NCBI GenBank assembly: GCA_048937405.1 | Contig: JBHLNF010000011.1 | Coordinates: 1-64,000 of the forward strand | DNA length: 64,000 nucleotides | Source: Promethearchaeota archaeon | GTDB taxonomy: Archaea > Asgardarchaeota > Lokiarchaeia > Sigyniarchaeales > SOKP01 | Direction of reading: 5' to 3' | Part shown: positions 22,839 to 57,242 of the stretch, one piece after another | How positions within the stretch are numbered: position 1 is the stretch's first letter | Layout of the letters: the number at the start of each line of letters is the position of its first letter | The notes under the pieces: model-generated | Told to the model about the DNA's origin: nothing | What the model saw: the letters and a program-made list of their open reading frames with translations, nothing else | Databases searched by the model: none | Translations under genes and position numbers: made by a program

Positions 22839-25211
22839 ATGAAATGTTTATTCTGTGAAAGCCAAAGAATTGACTTTACCTGTGAAAAATGTAAATCGAG
22901 TTTTTGTATCAATCATATAGCAACCACAGAAACTCATGAATGTCGAAAGCACAATCTTTTCTATTCAAAAGTAAAGGCATTAGAAAGAAATTATAAGTGT
23001 ACAGTTATAGAAAATAGTGAATGTCCTGTTTGTAAACATGTTCTAAGATTAGAACGATTATCTTCAGGTCAATACTATTTGGAATGTACTAACACCGAAT
23101 GCCCGGAAGCATGGAATTCATATTTAAAGACACCAGGCTTATTTTTTCCCTCAAAAGAAAAATTAGCTAGAGAAGCAATAAGATATAACCTTATGAGAGG
23201 AAATAAAATGATATTATGTAGTAAGAAATTGAGGCATATTATAGGGAGGGAAATCTGTCCTAAATGCTTTTTGGATCTATTAAAAAGAGCTCCGATAATT
23301 AACTTTTCAACAATTATTAATTCATTTAATATTTCAACAGATCAAATGATCAAATTCATCAATAAATATATGGAAGAAGAAAGAATTTATGGAATTGTTG
23401 ATCAAAAAAACCAGATGTTTTATTATATCTCCACCGAAATACGGAAAAAAGTACTAGCAAAGTTTCAGAGTGAAGGTATAATAAAGGTAGCAGATCTAGG
23501 AATAATGCTTGACATGAGTTCTGAAATTGCTCTCAAGGTGATTTATAAATTAATTAATCAATTCCAAATAAAAGGTTCTTTCTCATTAGATAAACAGACA
23601 TATTATACTCAAAAATATATCCTAGATAATTTAATTAAAGAAATTAAAGCTAAAGGAAGGGCCTCTTTAAAAGAACTTGCTAATAATTTCCATATTCCAA
23701 AAGAACTTGTAAAATCATTTTGCGTTAATATAATGAGGACAAAATCCATAAATGGATTTTTTGCAGATCGTGGAAATGAAATTATTACAGCAGATCAGAT
23801 TAATAAGGATATCAAACTTTTTTCTAAAGAGGCGGGATTATTTGAGCTTTCAAAACTAGCCACTAAATTGAAAATTGCTGTTGAGTTAGCACGAAAAAGC
23901 CTTCATGAACTTATTAAAACAGGTTCAATAAAAGGACTCTTTACACAAAGAAGAGAATTTATGACAAATAAATATATGGAGAAAAAAATAAAAGAACTTG
24001 CTCGAGCATACAGAACTATGCCTTTAAGAGAATTATCTAATAGATTAGGAGTAACTGAATCAAGTATTGAAGAGAATTTAGCGCAGATTATTGCTCGAGG
24101 TGATATTGATGGATATATTGATATGTCAAAGAGAACATTTGTAGCTTACAGTGTACCAATGGAGGTAAAAGCTCAATCAAAACAGAAAATAACTAAAGAC
24201 CCTACTGATGGTGGGAAAATTGAAGTAGTTCGTGAATACGATTTTATTGGAGGACAATTACACTATAAAGTAGTCATCCGCAATCAGGGCAATATGGCAA
24301 TAAACTCAGTCAAAGTACTCCTGGACGTACCAACTAGTTATAAAGCTAAGGATCATTTAATTAATATACCAGTTATTGAAGCTAAAAATTCTAGGGGCGT
24401 TGATTTCTATTTGGAACCAAAAGAATGTGGAATATCGAATATAGGTGGTGATGTAATCTATAAAACAGCATCAGGCGACAAAAAAACTGTCCATATTAGA
24501 AAAAAAGAAGTGCAAATAAAATGTCCATTGGTAGTCTCTTGTCTAGCTACAATTGAAGATATTCAAATTGCAATTGCAGATCTTCCTAATGATGCTCGAG
24601 CATTTTTAATTGCCGATTTAGACCCCCGCTTGGCATTTAGAGCGGCAGTAAGAACAATAAAGCGTTTTGAAGTAAGTACAGTAACTTCTCACGAAGGCAA
24701 TGATGCGAAAGGTAAATATGAAGCAGAAAGTTGGCATTGTTCAGAAGCAAAGGTTGGTGGTGGAAGGATTATAACACGAGTTTATGTATCTGAAGCAAAT
24801 CAGTCTTTGGAGGTTAGAGTTTGGTGTAACCACCCAGGTCAACTCACTGGTTTCCTTGCCAAAATAATAGAGCTTTTATTTGAGGAAATAAATATAATAA
24901 GGAAGATTAAATCCGAGGAACGAGAAAAAACAATTGATGTCATGGCGATTACCCAAAATTTGGCAGAAATTTCTGACTATTGTATGTTAAGATGGAAAGC
25001 TCAAAATATAAGAAACAAATTACATGATACTTTTGTACGACTACGAAAAGTATTAGGTGAAAAAGAAGCCATTCTTGGTAGAATTGAGTTTTGGCTTACT
25101 CAATTGAATAAATACGGCAAAGATGATAAAATTAGTGATGAAGACGCTGATAAATTAGTAAATGATGTTGAAAATTTTAGAAATGTTATTGCAAGATCTA
25201 TTAAATTATAA
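22839..25211 (+). CDS. Multidomain protein: Zn fingers, UFL1/PCI-like winged-helix repeats, Ig/platform-like C-terminus
   Basis: CxxC/CxxH clusters; repeats such as GSFSLDKQTYYTQKYI...GRASLKELA; PCI-type YRTMPLRELSNRLG...IARGDIDGYID; beta-sandwich YKVVIRN..VKVLLDVP. Confidence 0.65.
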   Translation: MKCLFCESQRIDFTCEKCKSSFCINHIATTETHECRKHNLFYSKVKALERNYKCTVIENSECPVCKHVLRLERLSSGQYYLECTNTECPEAWNSYLKTPGLFFPSKEKLAREAIRYNLMRGNKMILCSKKLRHIIGREICPKCFLDLLKRAPIINFSTIINSFNISTDQMIKFINKYMEEERIYGIVDQKNQMFYYISTEIRKKVLAKFQSEGIIKVADLGIMLDMSSEIALKVIYKLINQFQIKGSFSLDKQTYYTQKYILDNLIKEIKAKGRASLKELANNFHIPKELVKSFCVNIMRTKSINGFFADRGNEIITADQINKDIKLFSKEAGLFELSKLATKLKIAVELARKSLHELIKTGSIKGLFTQRREFMTNKYMEKKIKELARAYRTMPLRELSNRLGVTESSIEENLAQIIARGDIDGYIDMSKRTFVAYSVPMEVKAQSKQKITKDPTDGGKIEVVREYDFIGGQLHYKVVIRNQGNMAINSVKVLLDVPTSYKAKDHLINIPVIEAKNSRGVDFYLEPKECGISNIGGDVIYKTASGDKKTVHIRKKEVQIKCPLVVSCLATIEDIQIAIADLPNDARAFLIADLDPRLAFRAAVRTIKRFEVSTVTSHEGNDAKGKYEAESWHCSEAKVGGGRIITRVYVSEANQSLEVRVWCNHPGQLTGFLAKIIELLFEEINIIRKIKSEEREKTIDVMAITQNLAEISDYCMLRWKAQNIRNKLHDTFVRLRKVLGEKEAILGRIEFWLTQLNKYGKDDKISDEDADKLVNDVENFRNVIARSIKL

Positions 25212-35206: not shown

Positions 35207-36565
35207 TTAAGTTCCAATGAATTTAATAATTTTATCTTTGATTTCATAATTTGGTAGGATATAATCTGCATAACCTTTTTCTGCAGCGAACTTAGGCATT
35301 GCATACAATATACACGTTTCTTCTGCCTCAGCAATTGTTTTTCCGCCTACTTTTTTAATTGCCCCTAAACCTTCTACTCCATCTGATCCCATCCCGGTTA
35401 GAATTACCCCCATAGCACGATTTCTATAAATTTTTGCTGCCGAAAAAAATAATACATCTATGGAAGGCATACAAAAGTTAACTGGAGTTCCTTTATAAAT
35501 TTTAATTGAAGGTGTTTTATTTTTTACAGAAATTTCCATATGCATATCACCTGGAGCAAGATACACATGTCCTGGTTGAAGAAATTCTCCATTTTTTGCT
35601 ACTTTTATTTTAAGAACACATTCCATATCTAAATTATCTGCAAATGCATCAGTAAAATGAGAAGATAAATGCTGAACAATTAAGATTGGAGCATTAATAC
35701 TTCTTGGAATTTCTTTTAATATTGTTGTGATAGTTCTAGGACCCCCAACACTAGCGCCTATAACAATAATATTTGAAGATATAGTAGATCCTTTGATCGG
35801 TGCAAGATCGAGAGTCCTACCAATTTTTCTCTTTTTGATTGGTGTTGATATTGATTTTTTTTGTAAAGTAGATTTAGCTATTTTCTTTTTTGCCTTTTTT
35901 TCTTCTGTTTCTGATTTGATAATTGGTGGTTTAGTAATTTCTTCTTCTGATACTTCTTCTACCATTTGGATATTTTTTTCATCCTTAAGGATTGCCTTGA
36001 CTTTCATAACCTCAAAGGCATCATGTTCTGGTTTTTCTTCAATTTCTTCAATTGGAGTTAATCTATTAAGATATTGTCCAAAATCGAATATACGATCAAC
36101 CATTTCTTGTCGAAGAGATCTACTTTTTTTCAATATACTCTCTTCTTTCCTGAAAATACGTTTAATCTGGGATTGTGATGCTAACAGTACCTTTGCAAGT
36201 AATTCCTCACGAAATCTTGGTAAATCTTTTGCCCCAATACCTCCAGGTTTTATAATATAATCAAATGCTCCCATCAAAAGTGCTTGAATGGAAGAATCTA
36301 GATTCTTTGGACTTATAGCTGAAAGGATAATTGTAGGCGTGGGATGTTCTTCCATAACTAACTTGAATGCATCTAATCCGTTCATTTTAGGCATTACCAA
36401 ATCTAAGACTAATACATCTGGGCTATGTTTTTTATTAAGTTCTACTGCTTCTTTTCCATCCTTTGCAAAGTCAACAATATTTATCGAATCATGTTCTTTA
36501 AGAATATCTGCAATACTCTTTCTTAAATATTGCGAATCATCCGCTATTAATACATCAATCGTCAA
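35207..36565 (-). CDS. cheB: Chemotaxis methylesterase CheB (paralog 2, long linker)
   Basis: REC (ADDS, LDLVMP), GASVGG, VQHL, PSIDVLF, LTGMGSDG. Confidence 0.95.
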   Translation of the reverse strand: MTIDVLIADDSQYLRKSIADILKEHDSINIVDFAKDGKEAVELNKKHSPDVLVLDLVMPKMNGLDAFKLVMEEHPTPTIILSAISPKNLDSSIQALLMGAFDYIIKPGGIGAKDLPRFREELLAKVLLASQSQIKRIFRKEESILKKSRSLRQEMVDRIFDFGQYLNRLTPIEEIEEKPEHDAFEVMKVKAILKDEKNIQMVEEVSEEEITKPPIIKSETEEKKAKKKIAKSTLQKKSISTPIKKRKIGRTLDLAPIKGSTISSNIIVIGASVGGPRTITTILKEIPRSINAPILIVQHLSSHFTDAFADNLDMECVLKIKVAKNGEFLQPGHVYLAPGDMHMEISVKNKTPSIKIYKGTPVNFCMPSIDVLFFSAAKIYRNRAMGVILTGMGSDGVEGLGAIKKVGGKTIAEAEETCILYAMPKFAAEKGYADYILPNYEIKDKIIKFIGT

Positions 36566-36639: not shown

Positions 36640-36807
36640 TTAAAAAGGGATTGCTATAATTGCCCCAACTAATTCATCCTTAAATCCTTCTACTGAAGCT
36701 CGAGTAATTATCAAACCATCCAGATTAACGATTAAGACTGCTAAGAGGTTCTGCGCTTCATTCAATAATTTAGTAAGTAATTCTTCAAGATCAGTTACTT
36801 GAGATAT
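36640..36807 (-). pseudogene. Truncated roadblock/LC7 (MglB-like) ORF, 55 aa, ATA start
   Basis: ISQVTDLEELLTKLLNEAQNLLAVLIVNLDGLIITRASVEGFKDELVGAIIAIPF*; covers only the first half of the fold; absent from the ORF track. Confidence 0.65.
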
Positions 36808-36846: not shown

Positions 36847-37506
36847 TCACAAATTAAGATCATATTTTAAGTTTAAAATCTCAAAAAGGCTCTTTAAAAT
36901 ACTAACAGAAGGTATAAGACAAATAATTCCTTCCAGATTTATTTCAGATACAGTTATTTTTGTATTTATTATAATCAAGTAATCTGATAATTGTGCATAT
37001 TTGGCAATTATAATATCTAAAATGGCATTTAAAGTATCTATTGCTATTTTTGGAATATTTGGAACCAACTTAATTGATAACATATCTGCTAAGGCATTTG
37101 TATAATGACCAGATAAAATGTTTCCTATTTCACTTATAATACTTAATGAAAATTCATCTAAATCCTCAATAGATTTTAGATCCTCAATCGTAAATCTTTC
37201 AGAATTTGTTAATATATTGATTAAATTAACGATTGATTCTTTGGTAAATATCTGAACAATTGCTAAATCTGATTTAAATTGAATTTCTGAATAGATTCCA
37301 ACCATATCAATTGATGTCTTCTCAAATAATTCAGGAACTTTCCAAAAAGAAACAATATCTATGGATGTTAATGAAACTTCAACCTTATTGTTAAGTAATT
37401 TTGATAGTGCTGTTATTGCATGTCCAGAGCCAATATTGCCAAGTTCTTTTAAAATATCTAGTTGTTCATAGCTTAATTTTATATCCCTTGAATCATTCAT
37501 CTTCAA
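36847..37506 (-). CDS. cheC: CheY-P phosphatase CheC
   Basis: DILKELGNIGSGHAITALS and SEIGNIL (two ExxN motifs). Confidence 0.92.
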   Translation of the reverse strand: MKMNDSRDIKLSYEQLDILKELGNIGSGHAITALSKLLNNKVEVSLTSIDIVSFWKVPELFEKTSIDMVGIYSEIQFKSDLAIVQIFTKESIVNLINILTNSERFTIEDLKSIEDLDEFSLSIISEIGNILSGHYTNALADMLSIKLVPNIPKIAIDTLNAILDIIIAKYAQLSDYLIIINTKITVSEINLEGIICLIPSVSILKSLFEILNLKYDLNL

Positions 37507-37543: not shown

Positions 37544-38092
37544 TTATTCACGTAATTTTTTAAATTTTGATTCTTTTGTCGAACTAACATATACAGAGAA
37601 TTCTTTAGTGTTAAACTTTACAACTCTACCTTCAGATCCTCCCGTATTTTCTCCAATAATTTTAATTTGTAATTCCTTCAATTTTTTTTTGATTGCATTA
37701 ATGTTTTCAGTGCCTATTGTATTGCCTTCGATATCAAAAATCTTAGAACCTCCAATTATAATTGCTTTTATATTTTTCTTTATAGCCCCATGTTTTATTA
37801 ATTCTTGAACTAATAATTTTACGGAGAGATCGGCATATTTATGAGGAAATTCAATATTTTTATGAAGTTTAGAATTAGAAAGTAATACATGAGACATTCC
37901 ACCAACTCTTTTGAGGGAGTCAAAAAGTATTAAAGCAATACAAGAACCTAATCCAATTATTGATATTTTTGGATCGAAATTTCTCACTTTATTTGTACTA
38001 TGTACAATTACATAATGCCCTATTGGTAAGGCAATTTCACCATCCTTACCTGTTATTTCAATACGTCCATTTGAATTTATCTTTTCCATCAT
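37544..38092 (-). CDS. cheD: Chemoreceptor glutamine deamidase CheD
   Basis: GLGSCIALILFD...GGMSHVLL, KYAD, IIGGS, IG.EN, TGG..GR.V.F. Confidence 0.92.
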   Translation of the reverse strand: MMEKINSNGRIEITGKDGEIALPIGHYVIVHSTNKVRNFDPKISIIGLGSCIALILFDSLKRVGGMSHVLLSNSKLHKNIEFPHKYADLSVKLLVQELIKHGAIKKNIKAIIIGGSKIFDIEGNTIGTENINAIKKKLKELQIKIIGENTGGSEGRVVKFNTKEFSVYVSSTKESKFKKLRE

Positions 38093-38109: not shown

Positions 38110-39267
38110 TTATATTTCATCTTGAGAAATTGAATAATTACTAGCGAATTTTAACATCTGATCTTTAATTTCATAATTTGGAACTATTAATTTAGCAGCT
38201 CCTCTTTTTATGGCTGCTTTGGGCATACCAAAAACCACACAGGTCTGTTCTGATTCTGCAATTGTTTGACCTCCATTTTTTTTAATCGCTTCTAAACCAG
38301 CAGCACCATCCTGTCCCAATCCTGTTAGTAAAATTCCTAAAATTTGACTTTTATATACTTTTGCTGCTGAAAGAAATAACACATCCACCGAAGGCATACA
38401 AAAATTTACAGGTTCTCCATCTACAATCCTAATAAATTGTTGATTATTTCTTTCCACAACCTCCATATGTTTTCCTCCGGGACTAAGATATGTAATACCA
38501 GGAAGAATTTTTTCACCATTTACAGGGATTTTAACTTCAATATTACAGATCTCATTTAATGATTTTGTGAGTTCTTTCATGAAAAATGCATCTAAATGTT
38601 GAACAACTAAAATTGGCATAGGGAAATTTTTTGGAATATCTTTCAAAATTGTTCTTAAGGTTTTTGGTCCACCAGTACTAGTTCCGATTACTATTGCATT
38701 GGATTTAAATCTCGCTTTAGGTATTGGTTTCTTTTTTGGAATTTTTTCAATCTTCGTTTTTGGTTTTTTAGTTATTTGATATTCGGCACTATCTATAGTA
38801 GAATCAAAAGTTTTCTTAATTGATTTTTTTATTAATAAATTTCTTTTTTCATAAGTCTTTTTAATTTTACTAGCATAAAGCGTACTTAAAATTAATTTTT
38901 CTTTTAATTTGGGGAATTCTTTTTTCCATACTCCTTTTGGTTTCACAATAAAATCAAATGCTCCCAAAAGTAACGCTTGAACAGAATCATCTAATGTTTC
39001 TGGAGATTTAGATGTAAATATTATTGTAGGTATAGGATAATGTTCTGAAAGAAATTTAAAGACAGTTATTCCATCTACTTCAGGCATCATTAAATCCAAA
39101 ATTAGTACATCTGGATTAATAGTCTCAATTTTTTCAATTACTTCTCTTCCATTTATTGCAATATCTACTTTAGCTATTTCATCGCTTGATAATAACATAT
39201 TAGTGACTAATTTTCTCTGAAATGTTGAATCTTCTGCTAGTAACACTTTAATTGGTACTATAATCAC
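38110..39267 (-). CDS. cheB: Chemotaxis methylesterase CheB (paralog 1)
   Basis: REC (AEDS, LDLMMP), GTSTGG, VQHL, PSVDVLF, LTGLGQDG, VFGMPK. Confidence 0.95.
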   Translation of the reverse strand: MIIVPIKVLLAEDSTFQRKLVTNMLLSSDEIAKVDIAINGREVIEKIETINPDVLILDLMMPEVDGITVFKFLSEHYPIPTIIFTSKSPETLDDSVQALLLGAFDFIVKPKGVWKKEFPKLKEKLILSTLYASKIKKTYEKRNLLIKKSIKKTFDSTIDSAEYQITKKPKTKIEKIPKKKPIPKARFKSNAIVIGTSTGGPKTLRTILKDIPKNFPMPILVVQHLDAFFMKELTKSLNEICNIEVKIPVNGEKILPGITYLSPGGKHMEVVERNNQQFIRIVDGEPVNFCMPSVDVLFLSAAKVYKSQILGILLTGLGQDGAAGLEAIKKNGGQTIAESEQTCVVFGMPKAAIKRGAAKLIVPNYEIKDQMLKFASNYSISQDEI

Positions 39268-39393
39268 CTTTTTTTAAATATTTTCGACAACTAATTTAAT
39301 TGAAACCAGTTATTTTCATCGATAAGTGAATCAGAAAATTATGATAATTCAATTCAAATCGAATATCATTATTAGGTCTCAATTTTAAACACT

Positions 39394-39945
39394 TTATTTT
39401 TCTAATAATTTTTCAATTTCAGCAAAACGTTGTTGAATATGAGTAATTGAATAAGTTATATGAGCTTGAATTTCCTTAATCTCAGAGAGGATTTTTCTAA
39501 TGCGAGATTTGACTGTTTTAGATAATTCTTTACCATCTCCCATTATTTCAGATTCCAAACTTTGTTCTGAGGATAAGTTTGCCCCATATATAGAAGACGC
39601 TTGAGTTTGAATTACATATCTAGATTGTCCTGGATATTGTAAGTTAGAATTTTGTTCTTTAATTTCTTTGAATATTATATGAAACTCTGAGGGTTCAAGA
39701 CCTTCTTTAATAACTTCATATTTAAAATTATAAAATTTTTTTTTTGTTTTAAGTTTTCCAGCAAAATTAGCTGCCATGTAACGATGGAATAATCGAGAAT
39801 GACTACCTGCCCAAATCCAAATTAGTTTTAATTCTTTGTCTACAATTAAATATACACTATTAGGATCAAAAATCTTCTCTGGTCTTAATTTTAGTGTTTC
39901 ACCTTGCACTTCGTAAATGTAATCGTAATAACCGCTTTTTAACAT
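39394..39945 (-). CDS. Single gelsolin-like domain protein with C-terminal coiled coil
   Basis: FDPNSVYLIVD..LIWIWAG..S....Y.AA..A..L....EVIKEGLEPSEF follows the gelsolin-repeat consensus. Confidence 0.75.
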   Translation of the reverse strand: MLKSGYYDYIYEVQGETLKLRPEKIFDPNSVYLIVDKELKLIWIWAGSHSRLFHRYMAANFAGKLKTKKKFYNFKYEVIKEGLEPSEFHIIFKEIKEQNSNLQYPGQSRYVIQTQASSIYGANLSSEQSLESEIMGDGKELSKTVKSRIRKILSEIKEIQAHITYSITHIQQRFAEIEKLLEK

Positions 39946-40068
39946 GACATTTCAGTAGATATTGGTTTTGTTGATATATTAAGACTTATTATAAATTTGG
40001 GTTTTTATATTTATTTTAGAAAATTTTATAAAAAAAAAAAATAATTGTTTGATAGCTAGTAATAGATT

Positions 40069-42054
40069 TTAAGAATAAAACCTTAAAAGTGCCTCCAATA
40101 ATTCTTGCAGTGTTTCTAAGTTAGGGATAAATAAAAAAGTTCCAGTGACTTTTATATCTGTTATTATTACATTAGTAGTAATTACCAGTGATAATTTTTT
40201 AAGTAAACCAATTTCTTCTTTTAAAATTTTAAATAATTGACGTCCAGTATCTACACTCATATCTGGAGGTTCTGTCATTAATCTTATACCTAGTAGATCT
40301 CCAATAGCACTTACATAATGGCTACCCAATATATGCCCTAGTTCTGATATTGCACTATGATATAATTCAGGAAAATCGGATGCTTTATTTAACTTTTTTC
40401 TTAAATCGATTTGTTTTTTGTCATAATCATCCACTATTATAGAAGTTATATCTATAGCATCTTTCAAATTAAATAAAGTAAGTACCGTAGCTCTTGTTTT
40501 ACCAATTACATTACTCCAAGCAACCAAAAGTTTCTCATTTTTATTACTAATAGAATTCGCATATTCATCTAATTCAACCATCTCGACTGAGGGAATATTT
40601 ATATCTACTCGTTTATTAATCATCTGAGCTAAGGCATTAGCGGCATTTCCTGCACCAATATTTCCGACTTCTTGTAATGCATCTCTTTGTACTTCTGTAA
40701 GTTTTATCTTATCGAGATTAGGGACTTTTGATACTCTCTTTGTTGTCATTGTCTTGACAGCTATATCATGTTCAATTCCTAATCTGTTGAAAAATATCTT
40801 TAAGGTTTCGAGATCAGGAATAAAGAAGAACATACCGGTCAATTTCAAATCTGCTACTTTTATTGAAGTTTTTATTATTATAAAATATTGAGCAATAGAT
40901 TTTAATTCTTGAGAAAGAAATTCTCCGATTTCTCCGGCTTCGCTCATTGTAAATTCAGGAATATCAATCATCATTTTTGTTTCTAGTAAATCAGCTAAGG
41001 CTGAAGCATAATGTCCAGCCATGATATTACCCATCTCTACAATAGTAGAAACTGCAAAATCATCAAGATCCTTTTTAGATTTCACAGATTTAGGATCGAT
41101 TTTAGATTGATTCCCAGCTAAATCCGCAATCAATTTCATTAATGGGTGCATTTCAAAAATATTTAATATAGTTGCTTGAGAAGGTTTATCTATATGACAA
41201 AATATCCCACATACCTTTTCCTTATGTCCTCCAAATTGTTTTGGTAATTCATTTAAGGGTATAATACCTACATCTGTGAGAGAAACATCAATTTTCTTTT
41301 TAACTAATCTTGATAAGGCTGTAACCGCATTACCCGTTCCAATATTACCAAGTTCTTTAAGAATATCTTGCTGTTCCTCTGATAAAGATATTTGTTGAGG
41401 TTTTTTTTCTTCTGGAATTTTTGTTAATTTCATTTCGGACGATATGTTTTGAGGGATTACAACAGTTGATTCAATTGTAGGCTCTATTTTTGGTTTAGAT
41501 TTCAATTTAGGTTGTACTTTAGCACGTTCAAGGACTTTAGGCTTTAATTCTTGCTTCTTATCCGTTTTTTTTCCACTACCTTGTAGATACGGTTGGATTA
41601 AGGCATCTAAATCTAATAATATTAGTGCTTCATCCTGAAAAATTCCTGTTAATTTTATCAATCTAAAATCAATATTAGTTTTAACGATAGTACCCTGCTT
41701 TTTAAAGATTGAAAGGGGAATATCTCTAACACCAATTACAGCATCGACTAATAAAGCAATCTTCAAATCCTCATATTCTAATAGTAAAATTCGTGATGTA
41801 TTAGTGAATCCATAATCAATATCAATATCAGATATATTATGTCTTAAAGAGATAATCGAATAAATTTCTCCTCTTATATTAATAATTCCAACAAGAGATT
41901 TTTCTGCTAGTGGAACAGGAATGATATTTTCTCCTGGAACATATATTTCCTTTACATTTTCAACTTCTATAAGATATCTCTCATCAAGAACTTGAATAAT
42001 CACTACATTTAAAGTATCATTAAATTCCTCATTTTTAGCGTTTATTTCTAACAT
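40069..42054 (-). CDS. CheW-CheC-CheC fusion protein
   Basis: N-terminal CheW (IIPVP...VGIINIRGEI, ALLVDAV), K/P-rich linker, two CheC domains (ELGN/EMGN; EVGN/ELGH). Confidence 0.88.
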   Translation of the reverse strand: MLEINAKNEEFNDTLNVVIIQVLDERYLIEVENVKEIYVPGENIIPVPLAEKSLVGIINIRGEIYSIISLRHNISDIDIDYGFTNTSRILLLEYEDLKIALLVDAVIGVRDIPLSIFKKQGTIVKTNIDFRLIKLTGIFQDEALILLDLDALIQPYLQGSGKKTDKKQELKPKVLERAKVQPKLKSKPKIEPTIESTVVIPQNISSEMKLTKIPEEKKPQQISLSEEQQDILKELGNIGTGNAVTALSRLVKKKIDVSLTDVGIIPLNELPKQFGGHKEKVCGIFCHIDKPSQATILNIFEMHPLMKLIADLAGNQSKIDPKSVKSKKDLDDFAVSTIVEMGNIMAGHYASALADLLETKMMIDIPEFTMSEAGEIGEFLSQELKSIAQYFIIIKTSIKVADLKLTGMFFFIPDLETLKIFFNRLGIEHDIAVKTMTTKRVSKVPNLDKIKLTEVQRDALQEVGNIGAGNAANALAQMINKRVDINIPSVEMVELDEYANSISNKNEKLLVAWSNVIGKTRATVLTLFNLKDAIDITSIIVDDYDKKQIDLRKKLNKASDFPELYHSAISELGHILGSHYVSAIGDLLGIRLMTEPPDMSVDTGRQLFKILKEEIGLLKKLSLVITTNVIITDIKVTGTFLFIPNLETLQELLEALLRFYS

Positions 42055-42100: not shown

Positions 42101-42934
42101 TCATTTTAACATAATCCCTTTCCAAATTAATTCTAATTCAGGTTCATCTTCGTTTACTTCTGTAAAAAAATCTACTTGTCTATGTACTGATATTTGCCCA
42201 CCTTTAGAATATTTAAATACATAATTTAACATATCATCTGTATTAGTAAAGTTAAAACCCGCAAGTTTTAATTCAGCATCATTAATAATAATTAAATCTT
42301 CTCTATTAAAAGGACGGTTTTCTTCAATCCATTCAATCCATATCTCTGAATTAAGTTCTTTATTGATAATTTTTATTGATTTATCAATTGGTATATTGCG
42401 GAATGATTTACCTACAGCAAATATGATTTTATCAGGAATTAAATTTTCATTCTTTGCAAATTCATTTATCTTAGCTATTGCTTTATTATAACTATCAATA
42501 TCTAAAACATCATAACATAGAGTTAAAATCACTTCATTTTCTTCAGTTTCAAGAATAAAATCAATTAATAAGTCTGGATTAAGATCTGCGTTAACTTTTA
42601 TCGTTTTGATATTTACGTCTGGTATATATTTAAGATATTGATAAAATCGCCACTTAATGCTTAATTTATCACTTTTTTCCCTGCTAATAAAAATTTGAAA
42701 CATTAATTTTAACTGTTCTATAGTCATTTTTGATAAATTAGCTAGTTTTTCCACATCTTTTCCTAGTTCGACATAATTAATTTTTGATTTTGCATTTGAA
42801 GTTTTTTTTCCAGAAAAATCTTCTAAAAAAATCTTTAATTCATTTTCAGTGAATTGGGGTAGTACTTGTTCAATAAGATATAATAAATATTCTTTTGATT
42901 TGTCATCCATCATTTCATAATACTGTAATTTCAT
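42101..42934 (-). CDS. Hypothetical protein (possible degenerate restriction-endonuclease-like alpha/beta fold)
   Basis: ATG 42934 follows GGAGG SD (preferred to TTG 42976); IDFILET..EVILTLC segment; fold is a guess. Confidence 0.65.
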   Translation of the reverse strand: MKLQYYEMMDDKSKEYLLYLIEQVLPQFTENELKIFLEDFSGKKTSNAKSKINYVELGKDVEKLANLSKMTIEQLKLMFQIFISREKSDKLSIKWRFYQYLKYIPDVNIKTIKVNADLNPDLLIDFILETEENEVILTLCYDVLDIDSYNKAIAKINEFAKNENLIPDKIIFAVGKSFRNIPIDKSIKIINKELNSEIWIEWIEENRPFNREDLIIINDAELKLAGFNFTNTDDMLNYVFKYSKGGQISVHRQVDFFTEVNEDEPELELIWKGIMLK

Positions 42935-42968
42935 ATTATTTCCTCCTAAATTTTTCTTAATTGTTTTT

Positions 42969-44996
42969 TTATCCAACGAAAAATGATTCTAACTCTGAAA
43001 ATTTTTTATCCTTTCCTGTTATGCTTTTTAGATAATACATTATCTCTCTTTCTTGGTAAGGTAAAAGAGTATCAATTGTGAAAGATATCTTTTGTTCACT
43101 ATTTTTCTTTGATTTACTCAGTTTATATTCTATATTTGAGGATATCATTTCAAAAGACCCTGGAAAAGAATCTGTAATATTAACATCATTCAATTTCATA
43201 TTTGAACCATTTTTTGCAGTAATATATATAGCAAATTCATTAGCATTCCTTCCTGGATAAATTTGTTTTCCAACAATTACTTTACGTCTCTTATGAGAAA
43301 TTCTTATTTTAGATTTATCTGTTTTAGATATCTCATCCGAGATCATAAAATATTCTTTTATATAACGATTTTTATATTTTGAATAAAATGTATAAACTCT
43401 AAGTGGGAAAATATAATCTTTTTTATAATCTGGGTTGACTGCTTTGATAGGATATTTCAATTCCAAGAAATCATCCACAGCAATAATTGATTCCAAAGGA
43501 CTTTTCTTTAAATTGATATTTAATTCAATCGTATGCTCATGAGATGAATCTTCATCATCAGGTTTTAGATTCATCTCAATATCCTCAATATCTAATTTAC
43601 CCGACGATTTGGATAATACAAATTCAGAAATATCTCTTGGAGGTAAAAAGTTTTCAGGGATTTTTTCAATAATTTGAAGACCGTTGATTGGAAGTGATCC
43701 TTGATTATTAATAATTATTTGTGAATGTATTAATGTTTCTTCAAATGATTTAACCTCTTCTTCTGATAATTTCTTTTTTATTGACGAATAAGCAACTTTA
43801 AAGAAATTGTCATCGAATCTAGAAGTAATCATTGAATTCTTCTCAGTTTCGTAACCAACTGTATATCCTACTTTTCTTGAAAAGATTGGCTCCTTCTCAT
43901 CAGTAACATAAAAATAATCTGATTTATATTTACCATGTGGATTAATTACTTTTTTACGTAATACTGATCTATCTAATTCTAGGATTTTGTTTTTTTTTGT
44001 CTTATCAAATATTGTTATAGAGTTTAATTTTAATGTAAAATCACTAAGGTTTTCGAATCTAAGAGAACATTTCCAATTATTAGGTTCATGAATTTTCTCT
44101 GTTTTCTTAATGGCATGCATTGCGTGTGAATATGCTGAGAAATGATCGACTCTTACACCTGATATTACTTTCTTTGATAAATTAAAGGTTACTTCAATGT
44201 TTCCTGTGTTGATATTTTCCTTCTTCTTAGGAAATATTTTCGCATAGATAATAATTTCAGCACTTTCTCCTGGATTTAAATCTTTTAATTGGCTCTCGAT
44301 AGAATTTCTTAAAATTTTAAATTCATTACTTTTATTGCTTTCAAACTCAAAATCATAAAAAGCTGGTACGAACGATTTTTTAAACTTAACATTATCAATT
44401 TTTGTGTTTGAAATGTTAATAATATAAATTGTAAATTTAATTGTATTTTCTTTTCCCCATAAAAGTAAATAATGTTTAGTAGGATTTTTTTTCGAGGATT
44501 CTATTTCATTTAACTCCATATCTTCAAAACTACTTTTAAAGAACCCAATATCTTCACTAAGATTTTCAATACTTTCGTTAACTTCTATTAAATCTGGTAA
44601 ATCTTCAGAATTTACAATTTCATATTTCAATACTTTATTTGAATTAGGCTCAAAGACACCTAAATTAAGATTATTTTCTGCTTTTTGATTATCAAATTGT
44701 GAACCAGAGAATTGTAAATTTGCATCCCAAATTCTATCTTTAACAGAATTATTAAAAATTGAAATATTCCCATTCCCTATAACTGATTTTCTTGTTCTAT
44801 CGTTTTGATAATGATATTCCAAGAATTCTTCATTCAATATTAATACTTCTGATGCAGTACCCATATAACTTGATTCAATTTTTTGTTCTCTATGATTTTT
44901 TTGGATAAGTTTACCGCCTTCCCTGATGGGGATACCAAGAAAATTTGGGCTTATTTTTGTTTTTAATTCGTCAAGATCAATTTTTTTAAAACCCAT
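42969..44996 (-). CDS. Cytoplasmic beta-sandwich repeat protein (DUF11/Ig-like)
   Basis: Repeats of I.I.N.S...I..V.I.(D/E/K).(I/F)P..F; no signal peptide or TM. Confidence 0.65.
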   Translation of the reverse strand: MGFKKIDLDELKTKISPNFLGIPIREGGKLIQKNHREQKIESSYMGTASEVLILNEEFLEYHYQNDRTRKSVIGNGNISIFNNSVKDRIWDANLQFSGSQFDNQKAENNLNLGVFEPNSNKVLKYEIVNSEDLPDLIEVNESIENLSEDIGFFKSSFEDMELNEIESSKKNPTKHYLLLWGKENTIKFTIYIINISNTKIDNVKFKKSFVPAFYDFEFESNKSNEFKILRNSIESQLKDLNPGESAEIIIYAKIFPKKKENINTGNIEVTFNLSKKVISGVRVDHFSAYSHAMHAIKKTEKIHEPNNWKCSLRFENLSDFTLKLNSITIFDKTKKNKILELDRSVLRKKVINPHGKYKSDYFYVTDEKEPIFSRKVGYTVGYETEKNSMITSRFDDNFFKVAYSSIKKKLSEEEVKSFEETLIHSQIIINNQGSLPINGLQIIEKIPENFLPPRDISEFVLSKSSGKLDIEDIEMNLKPDDEDSSHEHTIELNINLKKSPLESIIAVDDFLELKYPIKAVNPDYKKDYIFPLRVYTFYSKYKNRYIKEYFMISDEISKTDKSKIRISHKRRKVIVGKQIYPGRNANEFAIYITAKNGSNMKLNDVNITDSFPGSFEMISSNIEYKLSKSKKNSEQKISFTIDTLLPYQEREIMYYLKSITGKDKKFSELESFFVG

Positions 44997-45049: not shown

Positions 45050-47122
45050 TTAATTTAAATTAGTAATTATATTTTCTTCTGTTTTAGAGCTAATAATACT
45101 TAAAACATCAAGTATTAAACAAATTGTTCCTTCACCTGTAATTGTAGAGCCTAATATCTCGCGAGAATCAGAATAATTGGATTTAAAAGGTTTTACAACT
45201 ACATCCAGTTGTTGAAGTTGTTTATCGGCAACAAATATAGCTGAATTATCTTCATCCTTTTGACACCATATTGCAATTTTCTTATGAGAATTTGGAGTGC
45301 TTTCAGATCCCATGTTTAGATATTCATTTAAATGAATTAAAGGTATTGTATTTGAATCTATTTTATAATATTGTTCTCCGTCAATATATTCAACTTGGTT
45401 AGGATTGAAAAAATAAATTTGTTTAATATTTTCAGTTGGAATCGCAAATAAATCATCTGCTATTTGGATTAATTGTGCTCTTAAAATTGCCCTTGTAAAG
45501 GGTACGTCTATAGTAAATTTAGTACCTATGTCTTTTTCTGAATGGATTCTTAAATTACCACCTAAATCCTTAATTTTTTCAGCTACAATAGCTAAGCCCA
45601 TACCTCTTCCTGAAATAATATCCGCATCTCCTAATGTAGAAAAGCCGGGTAAAAGAATATAGTGGTGAAGATCTTCTTTTGTTAATTGTTGTGCTTCCTC
45701 GGAGTTATAATAACCTTTGCTTATAACTTTTGCTCTTATTTTATCATAATTAATTCCAGCACCATCATCTTGAATTTCTATGAAAATTGAGCCTGCCCTT
45801 CTGTATGTTTTTAGTTTTAAAACACCAAGTTCATTCTTCCCTTTTTTTTTCCGATTCTTAGGTAATTCAATTCCATGATAAATTGCATTTCTAATTAAAT
45901 GGACTAATGGAGAATTAATTTCTTCTAAGATTTTTCTATCAATTTCAACATTAGTTCCCTCTAGAATAAGCCTAATTTTTTTCCCAGTTTCATTTGCAAC
46001 ATCTCGGACTAATCGTTTATACTTTCTAAATGTTGATTCAACCCTTACTAGTTTTAATTTGAACAGAATTTCTTGAATATCCAAGAAGGGTTTATCCATT
46101 TGATCAATTAACCTTATTATTGTTCTGTCTTCTTTTTCCTTTAAAAGTTGACTAATATGATTTTTCATTATTACGAGTTCTCCGAAGTAATTCATGAGTT
46201 CCTCTAGATATTCAATGTTAACTTTAACACTCATGATTTTTATGTTTTGATCCGAATAACTACCTACAATCCGGGAAACACTCTCTACTTCTTCAATATC
46301 AGCTTCTTCATCAAAATCCTCAATAAGTATTTCCTCACTCATAGATTTTGACTTTTCAAGTTCCCATTTTTCTTTAAGATCATCTATAGTCTTACTAAAT
46401 TCTTCAGATTTTATTGGAGTGATTACTATACTTTCAATTTCAAGAATTTCATCTAAAATCTGAAAAAGATTATCTTTGGTAGTCTGAGTGATGTAAAAGA
46501 TTTCAAACTCACTTCTAATTGTAGCTTTTTCTAGCTCTTCAGGAGTAGGATTAGTCCAACATATTTTACCATTTTCATTTAATGCTCTAAATATTATGAA
46601 TAATCTTACTTTTTTAAAAACACAAGTTTCTTCAAGACGAATATAAATCTTAAATGATTTATTTTTATTTTGACTTAATAATTTTGTAATTTCATCTGAT
46701 TCTAAAGGTTGAATAAAAGTAATACTATAATCCGTTTCAAAAGTATCAAAGCTATTTTTTATATCTTCAACGAAATTTGCATCAAGATCATTCATATTTC
46801 CAGTTTTTACTCGCTTTAAAATATTTCTTAACACATCTAGACTCTCAAATAACATATCTATGAAATTTCCTTGTTTGGTTTTAGAAACATTATTATCTTT
46901 AGCATTATCTAAAAAAGATTCAAAATGATGGCAAAACTTAGACAAATTCTCAAAACCTGCCATAGCAGTTAATCCTTTTAATGTATGAAATGTAAAGAAT
47001 AGTTCTTTAATTGGTTTAGGATTATCTGGATTTTCTTCTAAAGCAAGAATTTCTTCTTCAGTCTTTTGAATTAAATCCTCTGCTTCACTTATGAAAAGCT
47101 TTATATCGTCATCAGATGACAC
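45050..47122 (-). CDS. cheA: Chemotaxis histidine kinase CheA
   Basis: Hpt FHTLKG, P2 (IRLEETCVFKKVR), dimerisation LMNYFGELVI, HLIRNAIYHGIE, DDGAGI, GFST, SGRGMGL, C-terminal CheW-like domain. Confidence 0.97.
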   Translation of the reverse strand: MSSDDDIKLFISEAEDLIQKTEEEILALEENPDNPKPIKELFFTFHTLKGLTAMAGFENLSKFCHHFESFLDNAKDNNVSKTKQGNFIDMLFESLDVLRNILKRVKTGNMNDLDANFVEDIKNSFDTFETDYSITFIQPLESDEITKLLSQNKNKSFKIYIRLEETCVFKKVRLFIIFRALNENGKICWTNPTPEELEKATIRSEFEIFYITQTTKDNLFQILDEILEIESIVITPIKSEEFSKTIDDLKEKWELEKSKSMSEEILIEDFDEEADIEEVESVSRIVGSYSDQNIKIMSVKVNIEYLEELMNYFGELVIMKNHISQLLKEKEDRTIIRLIDQMDKPFLDIQEILFKLKLVRVESTFRKYKRLVRDVANETGKKIRLILEGTNVEIDRKILEEINSPLVHLIRNAIYHGIELPKNRKKKGKNELGVLKLKTYRRAGSIFIEIQDDGAGINYDKIRAKVISKGYYNSEEAQQLTKEDLHHYILLPGFSTLGDADIISGRGMGLAIVAEKIKDLGGNLRIHSEKDIGTKFTIDVPFTRAILRAQLIQIADDLFAIPTENIKQIYFFNPNQVEYIDGEQYYKIDSNTIPLIHLNEYLNMGSESTPNSHKKIAIWCQKDEDNSAIFVADKQLQQLDVVVKPFKSNYSDSREILGSTITGEGTICLILDVLSIISSKTEENIITNLN

Positions 47123-47151: not shown

Positions 47152-47550
47152 TTATTTCTTCTCTACTGGTTTATTTTTAAGTATTCGGTCCATGACCTCT
47201 AATATTTGCTCGGTCTTGAAGGGCTTTTGTATAAAGTCTTTTGCCCCTTTCTTCGCTGCTTCAAGAACTAAAGCTTCCTGACCTAGCGCAGAAACTACTA
47301 TAATTACTGCTTTCGGGTTTATTTTTAAAATCTCCTCTGTTGCTTCAATACCACCCTTTTCTGGCATTACTAAATCCATGGTTACTAAATCAGGATTTAA
47401 TTTCTTATATAGGGAGATTGCTTCTACACCATTCGAAGCTTCGCCTACAACCTCAATTTGTTCGATTTTATTAATTATGTTTTTCAACATATTCCGGGTG
47501 AATTGTGCGTCATCTACTATTAGGACCTTTTTTTTATTATTCTTTGACAT
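47152..47550 (-). CDS. cheY: Chemotaxis response regulator CheY
   Basis: VLIVDDAQFTR, PDLVTMDLVMP, VSALGQ, GAKDFIQKPF (archaeal/Firmicute CheY pattern). Confidence 0.95.
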   Translation of the reverse strand: MSKNNKKKVLIVDDAQFTRNMLKNIINKIEQIEVVGEASNGVEAISLYKKLNPDLVTMDLVMPEKGGIEATEEILKINPKAVIIVVSALGQEALVLEAAKKGAKDFIQKPFKTEQILEVMDRILKNKPVEKK

Positions 47551-47577: not shown

Positions 47578-48111
47578 TTAGGTTGATGCCGATAAATCTT
47601 TCTGGATTTTGAGTTTATCTACATCACTAAAAATCTTACTTAAATCAAGCAATATCCTTGGTCTTTCTTCAAATTTAATAATTCCCTTGATATATTCCAT
47701 TGCAACACTGGTCTGAAATATTGGACTCAATCCTATTATTTCAGCTGGTTTTATATGATCAATACTAAGGATAGAATCTGAATAAAAACCGATTAAATCA
47801 TTATCTATTTTTAGAATTATTATAAATTTTTTATTAGTTTTTGAATCTTGCTTAAATGAAGAACGCCTTGATTGATACAATTCTGAGTTAGTTAATTCTA
47901 ATTTTTTCGTCAGGTTAATTACATGAATAATTTCTCCTCTATAATTGTAAATGCCATCTATATAATCCACACTTTTGGGTAGTTTTCTAACTAAACCTGC
48001 TTGAATTATCTCCTTTACATCATATAAATCTATACAGAACTCTTCCCATCCAATTTGAAAGGATAGGATAGAAACTTGATTCAGTCCTTCATAATTTTGT
48101 TTTTGGCTCAT
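47578..48111 (-). CDS. cheW: Chemotaxis adaptor CheW
   Basis: FQIG.EEFCI...VKEII, LP...YIDGIYNYRGEII.VINL, YIKGIIK...ILLDL. Confidence 0.92.
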   Translation of the reverse strand: MSQKQNYEGLNQVSILSFQIGWEEFCIDLYDVKEIIQAGLVRKLPKSVDYIDGIYNYRGEIIHVINLTKKLELTNSELYQSRRSSFKQDSKTNKKFIIILKIDNDLIGFYSDSILSIDHIKPAEIIGLSPIFQTSVAMEYIKGIIKFEERPRILLDLSKIFSDVDKLKIQKDLSAST

Positions 48112-48129: not shown

Positions 48130-48948
48130 TTATATTATAAAATATTGATTAATTTTTTTTTCAAATTCGTTAAATGGAGTAACATCTCCATTAAAATCTT
48201 TTATATAATCGCGGAAATCGAAGATAAATTCGTCCGCGATAAGATACATATACCTTTGAAGTAATGAATTCATATTTTCAACCAAGAAAGCAAAGATAAC
48301 ATTACTTTTTGATATTACATAAAATTGTTGGTTCCCAAAATTAATTTCCTTAAGCTTTGCTCCCGTTTCCTCACCAATTATCGTATTTGAAAATGACAAT
48401 AAAGCGGATATAAATCCACCTATGTGAACTTCGTGCTCGGCTATATTTGATCGATTTTTATTAATTTTAGATACAAATGGACTTCCTGTAGAACCTATAA
48501 TGAATATTGCAATAACACCATCAGATTTTGGAATTTCAATCTCAGATTTAAAAACATTTTTTATTTCTGATAAAGGAGCATTAGAGAGAATTTGTTTATT
48601 TATTTTTTTCGACAAAAAATATAATTTTGGATAATTAACTGGAACATTTGGTTCTTTTTCTTCCATATACACTATAACAGAAATATTTTTTTCTCCATTT
48701 CTAAAATATTGTATATAAATTGTAAAATCCTCTAATGGAATAATTGAGTTTCCCTGCCTTTTATCAACAATTTCATTTTTATATAACTCAAAAATATTTT
48801 GAATTAACGATACTCCAATGCCCTTCTGAAAAACTACATTGAGCTTTCCACCATTCTCGAGGTCTGAAATGTCCAATAGACCATAACCGAGCATATGTAA
48901 TTTTTCAATTGGTTTACTTGAATTTCGATTTGTATCCATAGCGATCAT
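48130..48948 (-). CDS. Longin-like domain protein
   Basis: C-terminal IFIIGSTGSPF...IGGFISALLSFS.....LKEINFG..FYV......FAFLV.....EF...F...FNGDVTPF, an Asgard longin pattern. Confidence 0.7.
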   Translation of the reverse strand: MIAMDTNRNSSKPIEKLHMLGYGLLDISDLENGGKLNVVFQKGIGVSLIQNIFELYKNEIVDKRQGNSIIPLEDFTIYIQYFRNGEKNISVIVYMEEKEPNVPVNYPKLYFLSKKINKQILSNAPLSEIKNVFKSEIEIPKSDGVIAIFIIGSTGSPFVSKINKNRSNIAEHEVHIGGFISALLSFSNTIIGEETGAKLKEINFGNQQFYVISKSNVIFAFLVENMNSLLQRYMYLIADEFIFDFRDYIKDFNGDVTPFNEFEKKINQYFII

Positions 48949-55250: not shown

Positions 55251-56096
55251 ATGATTGAGTACATCATAATTGCTATTCTTCAAGGTTTATTTGAATGGCT
55301 TCCAATATCCTCTAGCGGTCAAACTATGATTATTTCTATGAATATATTTGGTATATCTGCTGATGAAGCATTCAGTCTTAGCATATGGTTACATTTAGGT
55401 ACAACCTTAGCTGTTTTATTGAAGTTTAAAACAGATTATATTAAGATTATAAAAAGTATTATACCACGGACATTTATCATAGATGAAATTGATATCAGAA
55501 AGAGAAATTGGTTGATATATGCTACGATTGGGACAGCAATTACAGCCTTACCACTTTATTTTATCTTTAGATTTATCATTTCAGGCGCATTTACTCCATT
55601 CCAAGGGGACTTAATCACTCTATTAGTTTGTGGATTATTGATTATTACTGGTATAATTTTATTGAAATCAAGAAAAATCTATGGAGAAAATTCTATAGAA
55701 AAAGTGCCAGAAAAATTCATACGAAAAGATAGTTTTGTATCTGGGCTAATTCAAGGTTTCTCGATATTACCTGGTATCTCCCGTTCTGGAGTTACTGTTT
55801 CATCAATTCTAATAGAAAATTATGACCAAGATAATGCTCTAAGATTAAGTTTTTTAATGTCTGCACCTGTTGTTATTGCTTCAATCATAGTTGATATAAT
55901 TTTTGGGGGGAATTCAATATTTCGAGTAATTAGTCCTGTTATTATTGTTATCACGGTATTGATTTCTTTTATAATTGGCTATTTATCCATAGAGTTCTTA
56001 CTTAAAATAGCTCAAAAAATTAGCTTTGGTTATTTCTGCATTTTATATGGTGTAATAGCTTGTTTGATTATTATTCCTTTTATGATAATATCTTAA
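55251..56096 (+). CDS. uppP: Polyprenyl-diphosphate phosphatase (UppP/BacA)
   Basis: QGLFEWLPISSSG, HLGT, PGISRSG.T, SFLMS.P. Confidence 0.92.
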   Translation: MIEYIIIAILQGLFEWLPISSSGQTMIISMNIFGISADEAFSLSIWLHLGTTLAVLLKFKTDYIKIIKSIIPRTFIIDEIDIRKRNWLIYATIGTAITALPLYFIFRFIISGAFTPFQGDLITLLVCGLLIITGIILLKSRKIYGENSIEKVPEKFIRKDSFVSGLIQGFSILPGISRSGVTVSSILIENYDQDNALRLSFLMSAPVVIASIIVDIIFGGNSIFRVISPVIIVITVLISFIIGYLSIEFLLKIAQKISFGYFCILYGVIACLIIIPFMIIS

Positions 56097-56986
56097 AGGT
56101 TTTCTATAAAGTTCTCAATAAAATTTTTTAACTCTAAATCTGCTTTGGGAATTCCTTTAAAACTTGGAAAATCATTTAAATCTATAATATAATATTTATC
56201 AAAGTCAACTGGTCGAACTAAATCAAATCCGAAAATCTTGAGATTTAATTCTTTAGATAAAATTTTTGATAATTTCTTAATATCTTCTGTTACTTCAAAC
56301 TCTTCTCGCTCAATTAAACTTACATCAATATTTTCTGGTTTATCTCTTAAATAAATATAAATAGGATTTTCCCTCTCAATACCGAATACCTTATCACCAA
56401 TCACATATATTTTTCTCTCAATACCATCACATTCTATAAATTCTTGAATATATACATCATAAGATAGGAATTCTTTATATCTCTCACAAAATTTATCTAT
56501 ATCCTCAATCTTTTGAACCAAAAAGTTGAATCTATTGTATTTATCATGTTGATAATGACTTTTAATAACTATAGGTAACTTTTTTGATACCCATTTCTTA
56601 AATTTTTCAAGATCAGACAATGACTGGTTCCAAGAATTGGGTAGTAAAAAATTTTCAAGAACTTTTTTATGTGTATTGAATATTTTTCTTATAGCATAAT
56701 CAAGAGCAATTTTATTCATACATAATAATACAGTATCTATATTGTGAAGTGTGGGGAGATTATAGATTTTAGCATAATGTAATAAATCTATAGAACATTC
56801 ATTCCTGACTTTTACTATAATTAAGTCTGTTTCTAATAATTCTGGCGGCATTTCAGAAAGACAGTAGAAATGTTTTGTCGGATCATGCAATATCAGTTTA
56901 ATATTTTTAATCTCCTTTAACTTCTTAATTAACTTTGTAATAACTTCATGATCTTGTCTTGCGGAAAAAAAAATTTTTTTTTTCAT
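56093..56986 (-). CDS. ATP-grasp protein, ITPK1-like inositol phosphate kinase
   Basis: YIQEFI..DG.ERKIYVIGD, IFGFDLV, YYIIDLNDFPSF (compare ITPK1 QEF..KVYVVG, FGFD, IDINYFPGY); next to ino1. ATG 56986 preferred to TTG 57043. Confidence 0.75.
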   Translation of the reverse strand: MKKKIFFSARQDHEVITKLIKKLKEIKNIKLILHDPTKHFYCLSEMPPELLETDLIIVKVRNECSIDLLHYAKIYNLPTLHNIDTVLLCMNKIALDYAIRKIFNTHKKVLENFLLPNSWNQSLSDLEKFKKWVSKKLPIVIKSHYQHDKYNRFNFLVQKIEDIDKFCERYKEFLSYDVYIQEFIECDGIERKIYVIGDKVFGIERENPIYIYLRDKPENIDVSLIEREEFEVTEDIKKLSKILSKELNLKIFGFDLVRPVDFDKYYIIDLNDFPSFKGIPKADLELKNFIENFIENL

Positions 56987-57242
56987 TGATTTGGTAATAG
57001 TTTTTATCCCATATTTATTGTTATAATATTTTAATGCTTTCAATCCACATATAGTATATTTAATAATAATTTAATAATTAAAACATCATTTATAGGTTAA
57101 GATTACTTAATTAAAATTAAAACTTGAGTTCAATTCTATTAAATTCACCTTTATTTATCTTTATGATTCATACATCTAAGTATTAAATCTTTATGGTATT
57201 TTAAAATGATTTAAATATTATTACTATATTATACAAAATATC

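Follow-up and report, generated by a model that had tools for sequence, protein, structure and literature searches.

Gelsolin-domain gene of the che cluster

Analysis of the window (the whole stretch of DNA that was analysed, 64,000 nucleotides (nt), positions 1 to 64,000 of contig JBHLNF010000011.1 of a Promethearchaeota archaeon from the Lokiarchaeia) showed a cluster of chemosensory (che) genes on the minus strand and, within it, a complete gene (P0001) coding for a protein of 183 amino acids (aa) with a gelsolin-homology domain. Among the single-domain Asgard gelsolins, the protein forms a new subfamily, marked by a unique tail, and the gene is fixed in a chemosensory operon. The translation of the open reading frame (ORF) contained the motifs VYLIVD, IWIWAG and EGLEPSEF, and the protein has a size of 21 kDa. 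A total of 147 full-length homologs (170-200 aa) were obtained, all of them from Asgard metagenome-assembled genomes and all annotated as "hypothetical". The ratio of nonsynonymous to synonymous substitution rates (dN/dS) against the nearest orthologs was 0.12-0.16 overall. By part (against L001 and L004), it was 0.05-0.07 for residues 1-109 and 0.12-0.22 for residues 141-183, while residues 110-140, which form a linker, gave 0.6-0.7; the full range for the linker was 0.6-1.2. The 183-aa ORF is a real gene, and both of its conserved modules are under purifying selection. The positions of the gene, its parts and its neighbours are shown in Table 1.

The AlphaFold2 model, built from 55 orthologs of 46-90% identity, showed the gelsolin fold, in which a central beta-sheet (strands 10-14, 17-20, 31-36, 41-46 and 75-80) lies between one long helix (52-65) and one short helix (86-97). 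The predicted local distance difference test score (pLDDT) was above 90 for residues 10-97. All 43 Foldseek matches at E<1e-3 were gelsolin, villin, adseverin or CapG domains, and Foldseek supported the domain with E 1.6e-6. The top structural match in VIA-align was Thorarchaeota ProGel (7c2f_B; Z 11.9, root-mean-square deviation 2.0, 85 of 88 residues), followed by about 50 further gelsolin-family entries at Z 9.4-10.4. Searches of PDB sequences also returned ProGel, with E 3.6e-5 for the single sequence (phmmer) and 1.4e-6 for the family profile, and gave further matches to Heimdall 2DGel (7whf_G), Thor 2DGel3 (7c2h_G) and villin (9jus). A gelsolin domain of about 90 aa, which the sequence-only reading had recognised from the repeat pattern, was thus recovered at residues 10-98. 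The comparison with Pfam Gelsolin (PF00626) that the same reading had proposed bore it out in part: the protein itself scored 13.2 bits (E 0.08), below the gathering threshold of 21 bits, and 14.6 bits, again sub-threshold, in the whole-genome scan, while PF00626 was the sole family matched repeatedly among the orthologs (40 of 55 at E<=0.1, best 1.9e-4). Gelsolin was the only Pfam family listed for the protein, which showed no homology to CheF (PF04283).

Residues D36, W45 and G47 were invariant among the 55 orthologs, and the long helix, S50-K66, was almost wholly so. D...W.G is the gelsolin motif, its counterpart in cofilins being WP, and the long helix is the actin-binding helix in ProGel and G1 (PMC7444086). 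The conservation of this helix on every face points to a conserved partner.

A basic loop inside the domain, K64-L-K-T-K-K-K70, is specific to the family and is not found in ProGel. The type-2 calcium site of gelsolins has acidic ligands, an Asp that precedes the second strand and a Glu with which the long helix begins. In alignments to 2DGel3 and villin, these positions are replaced, the Asp by S30 and an Asp-Glu pair by F53-H54, and the position of S30 is variable among the orthologs (G, S, D or E). Because the acidic ligands are replaced in these alignments, the domain, like ProGel, is probably not calcium-controlled. Elsewhere in the window, a myo-inositol-1-phosphate synthase gene adjoins an inositol-trisphosphate-kinase-like ATP-grasp gene (56093-58337); given the basic KLKTKKK loop, these genes could bear on inositol lipids.

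The domain is followed by a conserved L-x-Y-P-G-Q-S-R motif, in which P105, G106 and R109 were invariant and L102 and S108 nearly invariant among the orthologs. After the domain, the sequence-only reading had placed a linker and a coiled coil, and the model showed a linker and a helix. The linker had pLDDT below 50 (residues 115-136), a column identity of 0.26 and a length of 20-33 aa in the family, and it evolves near-neutrally. The predicted C-terminal helix (143-182, about 40 residues) had pLDDT 75-93 and a column identity of 75%, with Q160 and Y165 invariant among the orthologs. Its hydrophobic residues follow a 3-4 spacing, 9 of the 12 a/d positions being hydrophobic in each of two registers, and the pattern fits heptads with one stutter.

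A profile of the helix alone, searched against 1.84 billion representative proteins, gave 20 matches, all in proteins of 205 aa or less and all with the helix at the C-terminus, so that every match is a member of the family or a fragment of one. Fused or longer forms (322-2000 aa) were looked for and none was found, which is weak evidence. As far as sequence searches reach, the C-terminal helix is unique to the che-linked family; it is no module common to other proteins and gives no clue to a partner.

Gene order, co-occurrence and paralogs

The locus survey was done with one genome per species and covered 27 loci with an ortholog (45-84% identity), gene order being judged only as far as each contig reaches. 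In all 27 loci, the gelsolin gene lies directly after the gene for the CheW-CheC-CheC fusion (CheWCC). The common order was unk272-CheW-CheY-CheA-DUF11 protein-unk291-CheWCC-GEL-(CheR)-CheB-CheD-CheC-(Roadblock-Ras)-CheB, where GEL is the gelsolin gene. Pfam matches of the flanking genes in the window confirmed that it sits between a CheW-CheC fusion and CheB, as had been read from the sequence. The genes for unk272, unk291 and the DUF11 protein are as firmly fixed in the cluster, with the same position in 19-24 of the 27 loci where the contig permitted; phmmer searches of PDB sequences with unk272 and unk291 returned no usable match. The cluster is split in L009 (CP070831.1, a closed chromosome) and in G188, with CheA about 1.08 Mb from a block that consists of CheW-CheC-CheC, gelsolin, cheR, cheB, cheD, cheC, Roadblock-Ras and cheB. 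As the split cluster keeps gelsolin with CheW-CheC-CheC, the gelsolin gene travels with the CheC/adaptation half. In one distant relative (LW40_45), an additional CheY gene (L022:12971-13339) lies between cheC and cheB of the same cluster.

The co-occurrence survey covered 399 Asgard genomes, with an ortholog defined by E<1e-30. An ortholog was found in 41 genomes, all 41 of which contained CheA; in the GTDB family of the window, 39 of the 42 genomes with CheA and none of the 92 without CheA had an ortholog, and these counts are overstated, related genomes being non-independent samples. Presence was patchy even inside the genus, which indicates that the gene was lost together with the che cluster. 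The gelsolin gene is inherited, kept and lost along with the che genes, and its link to them was non-random in both surveys. Five genomes with CheA and without an ortholog were searched again at a looser threshold and yielded distant gelsolin paralogs only; in G138, the one compared of these five, neither CheA gene is near the paralog.

Neither CheF (none above the cut-off) nor archaellin was detected in the genome to which the window belongs, and the genomes with the gelsolin gene likewise show neither. Among the 399 genomes, CheF was present in 1 and archaellin in 2-3. The use of CheF as a marker to split archaellum-coupled from gelsolin-linked Che systems therefore failed, since CheF is almost absent across the phylum. 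Elsewhere, the genome of the window contains about 11 genes for methyl-accepting chemotaxis proteins and two cheR genes, and it encodes two actins (Lokiactin) and three actin-related proteins.

The gelsolin gene is flanked by gaps of 123 nt upstream and 126 nt downstream. Gaps of about 125 nt on both sides had been taken to leave room for independent transcription, a view that the upstream gap fits and the downstream one does not. Most relatives carry a cheR gene and a gene for a Roadblock-Ras GTPase fusion, and both have been lost from the cluster of the window. In 17 related loci, cheR starts 10-30 nt past the gelsolin stop (about 11 nt in 15 loci). The sequence past the stop in the window, AGTGTTTAAAA ttg, matches the usual 11-nt spacer between gelsolin and cheR in relatives, AGTGTTTAGAA gtg, and a relic of the cheR start follows (24 aa, 50% identity, E 0.04 to the CheR of L004 by tblastn, a match that is weak taken alone). 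Because the spacer and the relic remain where relatives have cheR, the 126-nt gap is, on this comparison, a cheR deletion scar and not a promoter region. A relic of the Roadblock/LC7-Ras GTPase gene was also observed (36649-36807, minus strand), covering 53 N-terminal aa at 70% identity; in 17 related loci, the intact gene, which codes for 318 aa, stands between cheC and the second cheB.

In the upstream gap, a run of 12 T occupies 40030-40041, and a stretch that is rich in A/T and CCAAAT/TATA-like lies at about 39985-40000. A T-run of at least 6 follows the CheW-CheC-CheC stop in 24 of the 27 related loci, and a similar "ATATCCAAAT" stretch or CCAAAT element recurs in many of them. Archaeal transcription ends at oligo-T tracts and starts from TATA-box promoters. 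Since the T-tract and the A/T-rich stretch resemble an archaeal terminator and promoter, they suggest that the gelsolin gene has a promoter of its own and begins a second transcription unit, gelsolin-cheR-cheB-cheD-cheC. That it normally heads a cheR-cheB-cheD-cheC unit is also indicated by the start of cheR about 11 nt after its stop. A scan for sigma-70 promoters and hairpin terminators gave counts at the level of shuffled sequence and is not informative for an archaeon.

The genome of the window (4.47 Mb, 29 contigs, 100% complete by marker genes) encodes several gelsolin-domain proteins besides the che-linked one. These include a 195-aa single-domain form, two proteins of 361 and 403 aa with a gelsolin domain and a long extension, and the two forms listed at the end of Table 1. 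The 361- and 403-aa paralogs are the closest to the che-linked protein in this genome, with an identity of 23-25% that is limited to the gelsolin domain and the short following motif, the profile alignment extending through the L-x-YPGQSR segment.

A further paralog family of 165-182 aa, GEL2 (L044:9034-9570, L045:9212-9727 and L048:9392-9940; also L046, L047 and L049), was found in other genomes of the same GTDB family, while the genome of the window had none at E<=1e-10. GEL2 proteins have the build of the che-linked protein: the gelsolin domain, of 31-44% identity, scores 23.4 bits with Pfam, which exceeds the cut-off, and it is followed by an acidic linker and, at the C-terminus, an amphipathic helix. 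GEL2 was rejected as a che-cluster gene because no che gene was found within about 9 kb. In L044, two Roadblock/LC7 genes precede GEL2, which is directly followed by a FIST sensor-domain gene and then by LuxE- and LuxC-like genes; the neighbourhoods in L045 and L048 have the same ORF sizes in the same order.

The window (GC content about 27-28%) also holds typical Asgard signature genes, such as the gene (22839-25211, plus strand) for a eukaryotic-signature multidomain protein of 790 aa with PCI, UFM1-ligase-like, DDRGK and VPS28-like regions.

Table 1. Positions of the gelsolin gene, its parts and the surrounding che cluster in the window, with two gelsolin paralogs of the same genome
Feature	Position	Strand	Basis or remark
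che-linked gelsolin-domain gene (P0001), complete, 183 aa	39394..39945	-	ORF and translation
Gelsolin-homology domain, aa 10-98	39652..39918	-	AlphaFold2, structural and profile matches
Conserved post-domain motif L-x-Y-P-G-Q-S-R, aa 99-109	39619..39651	-	ortholog conservation
Variable linker, probably disordered, aa 110-140	39526..39618	-	pLDDT, column identity
C-terminal amphipathic heptad helix, aa 141-183	39397..39525	-	AlphaFold2, conservation
Intergenic, CheW-CheC-CheC to gelsolin gene	39946..40068	-	sequence
cheR start relic (putative deletion scar) between gelsolin gene and cheB	39299..39370	-	tblastn
unk272	48130-48948	-	che cluster order; without Pfam or PDB sequence match
CheW	47578-48111	-	che cluster
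CheY	47152-47550	-	che cluster
CheA	45050-47122	-	che cluster
DUF11 beta-sandwich-repeat protein, 675 aa	42969-44996	-	che cluster
unk291	42101-42976	-	che cluster; without Pfam or PDB sequence match
CheW-CheC-CheC fusion, 661 aa, upstream neighbour	40069..42054	-	Pfam CheW 1.9e-19, CheC 4.8e-37
CheB methylesterase, 385 aa, downstream neighbour	38110..39267	-	CheB_methylest 8.5e-60, Response_reg 7.7e-20
CheD	37544-38092	-	che cluster
CheC	36847-37506	-	che cluster
Second CheB	35207-36565	-	che cluster
Two-domain gelsolin with C-terminal zinc-ribbon-like CxxC...CxxC tail, 338 aa	G000:C14 (L028:1438-2454)		own genome
Gelsolin-like N-terminus fused to multi-pass membrane region, 261 aa	G000:C28 (L034:1429-2214)		own genome

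Proposed role and alternative explanations

A complete Che system is present in many Lokiarchaeia. For Lokiarchaeum ossiferum, published work describes chemoreceptor arrays, a set of che genes and eight gelsolin-like proteins (PMC9834061). Asgard archaea crawl by means of protrusions that depend on Lokiactin, and five of the nine gelsolin homologues of L. ossiferum co-precipitate with Lokiactin; chemotaxis is not mentioned in the paper on crawling, nor does that paper name a pathway for steering (PMC13716822). Asgard gelsolins have also been shown to regulate actin in vitro (PMC7444086). Che systems and arrays exist, yet CheF and archaellin are almost absent in the phylum. A gene that is kept, placed and lost with the che genes offers a small, expressible and testable candidate for the missing output. 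A full-text search of a literature library found no paper connecting a gelsolin gene with the che cluster.

The two-module protein would be a dedicated component of a Lokiarchaeia-type chemosensory system. Judged from its sequence, the gelsolin domain would bind Lokiactin without calcium control, while the C-terminal helix would either form dimers or dock on a Che protein, for which CheW-CheC-CheC would be the best candidate by gene order. In this way, the protein would tether the chemosensory apparatus to actin filaments or relay its output to them, and by analogy it would take the place that the CheF adaptor holds in swimming archaea. The reading preferred here, in which the protein connects the Che apparatus with Lokiactin as an adaptor or effector, is possible and is held tentatively. 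The more specific claim, a physical link from bacterial-type two-component chemosensing to eukaryote-type actin in which the state of the Che array or of phosphorylated CheY (CheY-P) would place gelsolin on Lokiactin, is rather unlikely as it stands.

Several points weigh against the preferred reading. ProGel, the nearest solved relative, binds rabbit actin weakly (dissociation constant about 337 uM), and no actin binding is known for some gelsolin-like domains, such as that of Sec23 (PMC7444086). The che-linked protein is the most divergent gelsolin paralog in its own genome (13-15 bits, Pfam), and the co-occurrence counts are inflated by relatedness among the genomes. Other lineages with CheA (f2, f3, f11, f14-f16 and f24) have no ortholog and are mostly without CheF and archaellin, so the gene is no general requirement for Asgard Che signalling. 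In addition, unk272, unk291, the DUF11 protein and the Roadblock-Ras protein of relatives could equally carry the output.

A first alternative is that the Che apparatus has taken over the gelsolin fold for a use of its own, with no role on actin. The protein would then bind a Che protein or a receptor, for instance to provide a scaffold or to regulate the co-transcribed CheR, CheB and CheC-CheD adaptation enzymes. The tight join to cheR (a spacer of about 11 nt) and the constant adjacency of CheW-CheC-CheC fit this alternative, as does the fact that the gene was never seen without che genes in the genomes surveyed. The divergence of the protein by Pfam score, the family-specific loop K64-K70 and the precedent of Sec23 count in the same direction. 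However, the nearest relatives in sequence and structure are all actin-binding gelsolins, solved in complex with actin, and the helix that contacts actin in them is the most conserved element of the protein. No Che system is known to use a gelsolin fold, and the literature search found no paper on one; this was also counted against the alternative. On balance it lies somewhat on the unlikely side; if it is correct and there is no actin binding, the protein is still a new chemosensory accessory component with a fold not known in that role.

A second alternative is that the protein regulates actin in the ordinary way and is linked to the che genes by co-expression only. It would make no Che contact, and its helix would serve only for self-association or for binding to the sides of filaments, as proposed for domain X of 1DGelX. 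The architecture resembles that of 1DGelX (a gelsolin domain, then the coiled-coil domain X), GEL2 paralogs of the same build lie outside che clusters, and the genome has several other gelsolin-domain proteins. However, the strict co-occurrence and the fixed position, which hold at 45-90% identity and even in the split cluster of L009, exceed what co-expression needs, and the C-terminal helix is unique to the che-linked family; this alternative was considered distinctly unlikely. A chance ORF or a decaying gene within AT-rich intergenic DNA, to which the low GC content (about 28%) and the previous loss of cheR and the Roadblock-Ras gene from the cluster might point, was ruled out by the 147 full-length homologs, the confident fold prediction and the dN/dS of 0.05-0.22 across both conserved modules, and its probability is practically nil.

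The gelsolin protein is thus a concrete, unproven candidate for a link from chemical sensing to actin in an Asgard group that shows no swimming motor. If the physical link is true, Lokiarchaeia would grow protrusions and crawl with a bias set by the state of the Che array or of CheY-P, a mechanism of chemotaxis output without known counterpart in bacteria or archaea. Relatives of the eukaryotic ancestor would then already have had a prokaryotic signalling module coupled to an actin cytoskeleton.

Comparison with known systems

ProGel (PDB 7C2F; Akil et al. 2020, PMC7444086) is likewise a single domain of the gelsolin/cofilin type, and it was the best match of the che-linked protein both in sequence (profile search, 25% identity) and in structure. 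In the alignments, neither protein has the acidic calcium ligands. ProGel is a bare domain of about 90 aa, whereas the che-linked protein has in addition the KLKTKKK loop, the L-x-YPGQSR motif, a linker of 30 aa and a heptad helix of 40 aa. Its gene also stands in a che operon, and no such context has been described for ProGel.

Thor 1DGelX has a gelsolin domain and a coiled-coil domain X, which is proposed to bind the sides of filamentous actin (F-actin), and it severs rabbit F-actin without calcium control (PMC7444086). The likeness is one of architecture only, 1DGelX being known by description: one gelsolin domain is followed by a C-terminal coiled-coil region. 1DGelX runs near actin on gels, at roughly twice the 21 kDa of the che-linked protein (PMC7444086), and its size is better fitted by the 361- and 403-aa paralogs of the same genome than by the 183-aa protein. 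The comparison with 1DGelX that the sequence-only reading had proposed held for the build of the protein. Calcium-regulated gelsolins (Asgard 2DGel and eukaryotic gelsolin) have acidic type-2 ligands, which the che-linked protein lacks in the alignments.

In euryarchaea, the chemotaxis adaptor CheF passes the signal from CheY-P to the ArlCDE switch of the archaellum. Like CheF, the gelsolin protein is small, lineage-specific and encoded with che genes, and it could connect the Che core to a motility machinery; the two differ in that they have no relation in sequence or fold. The Frz pathway of Myxococcus xanthus acts on the polarity switch formed by MglA (Ras-like) and MglB (Roadblock), and its output is polarity and surface motility. 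The resemblance to Frz is an analogy only: both are Che-type pathways without a rotary-motor output, and the cluster of relatives carries a Roadblock-Ras GTPase gene, whereas the Frz system has neither a gelsolin nor a eukaryote-type actin.

Eukaryotic gelsolin, CapG and severin have the gelsolin-homology domain in common with the che-linked protein. They differ from it in having 3-6 domains, control by calcium and phosphatidylinositol 4,5-bisphosphate, and genes that are not encoded with two-component genes. Conceptually they would be alike, since in eukaryotes an actin severing or capping protein of this family acts downstream of chemical sensing.

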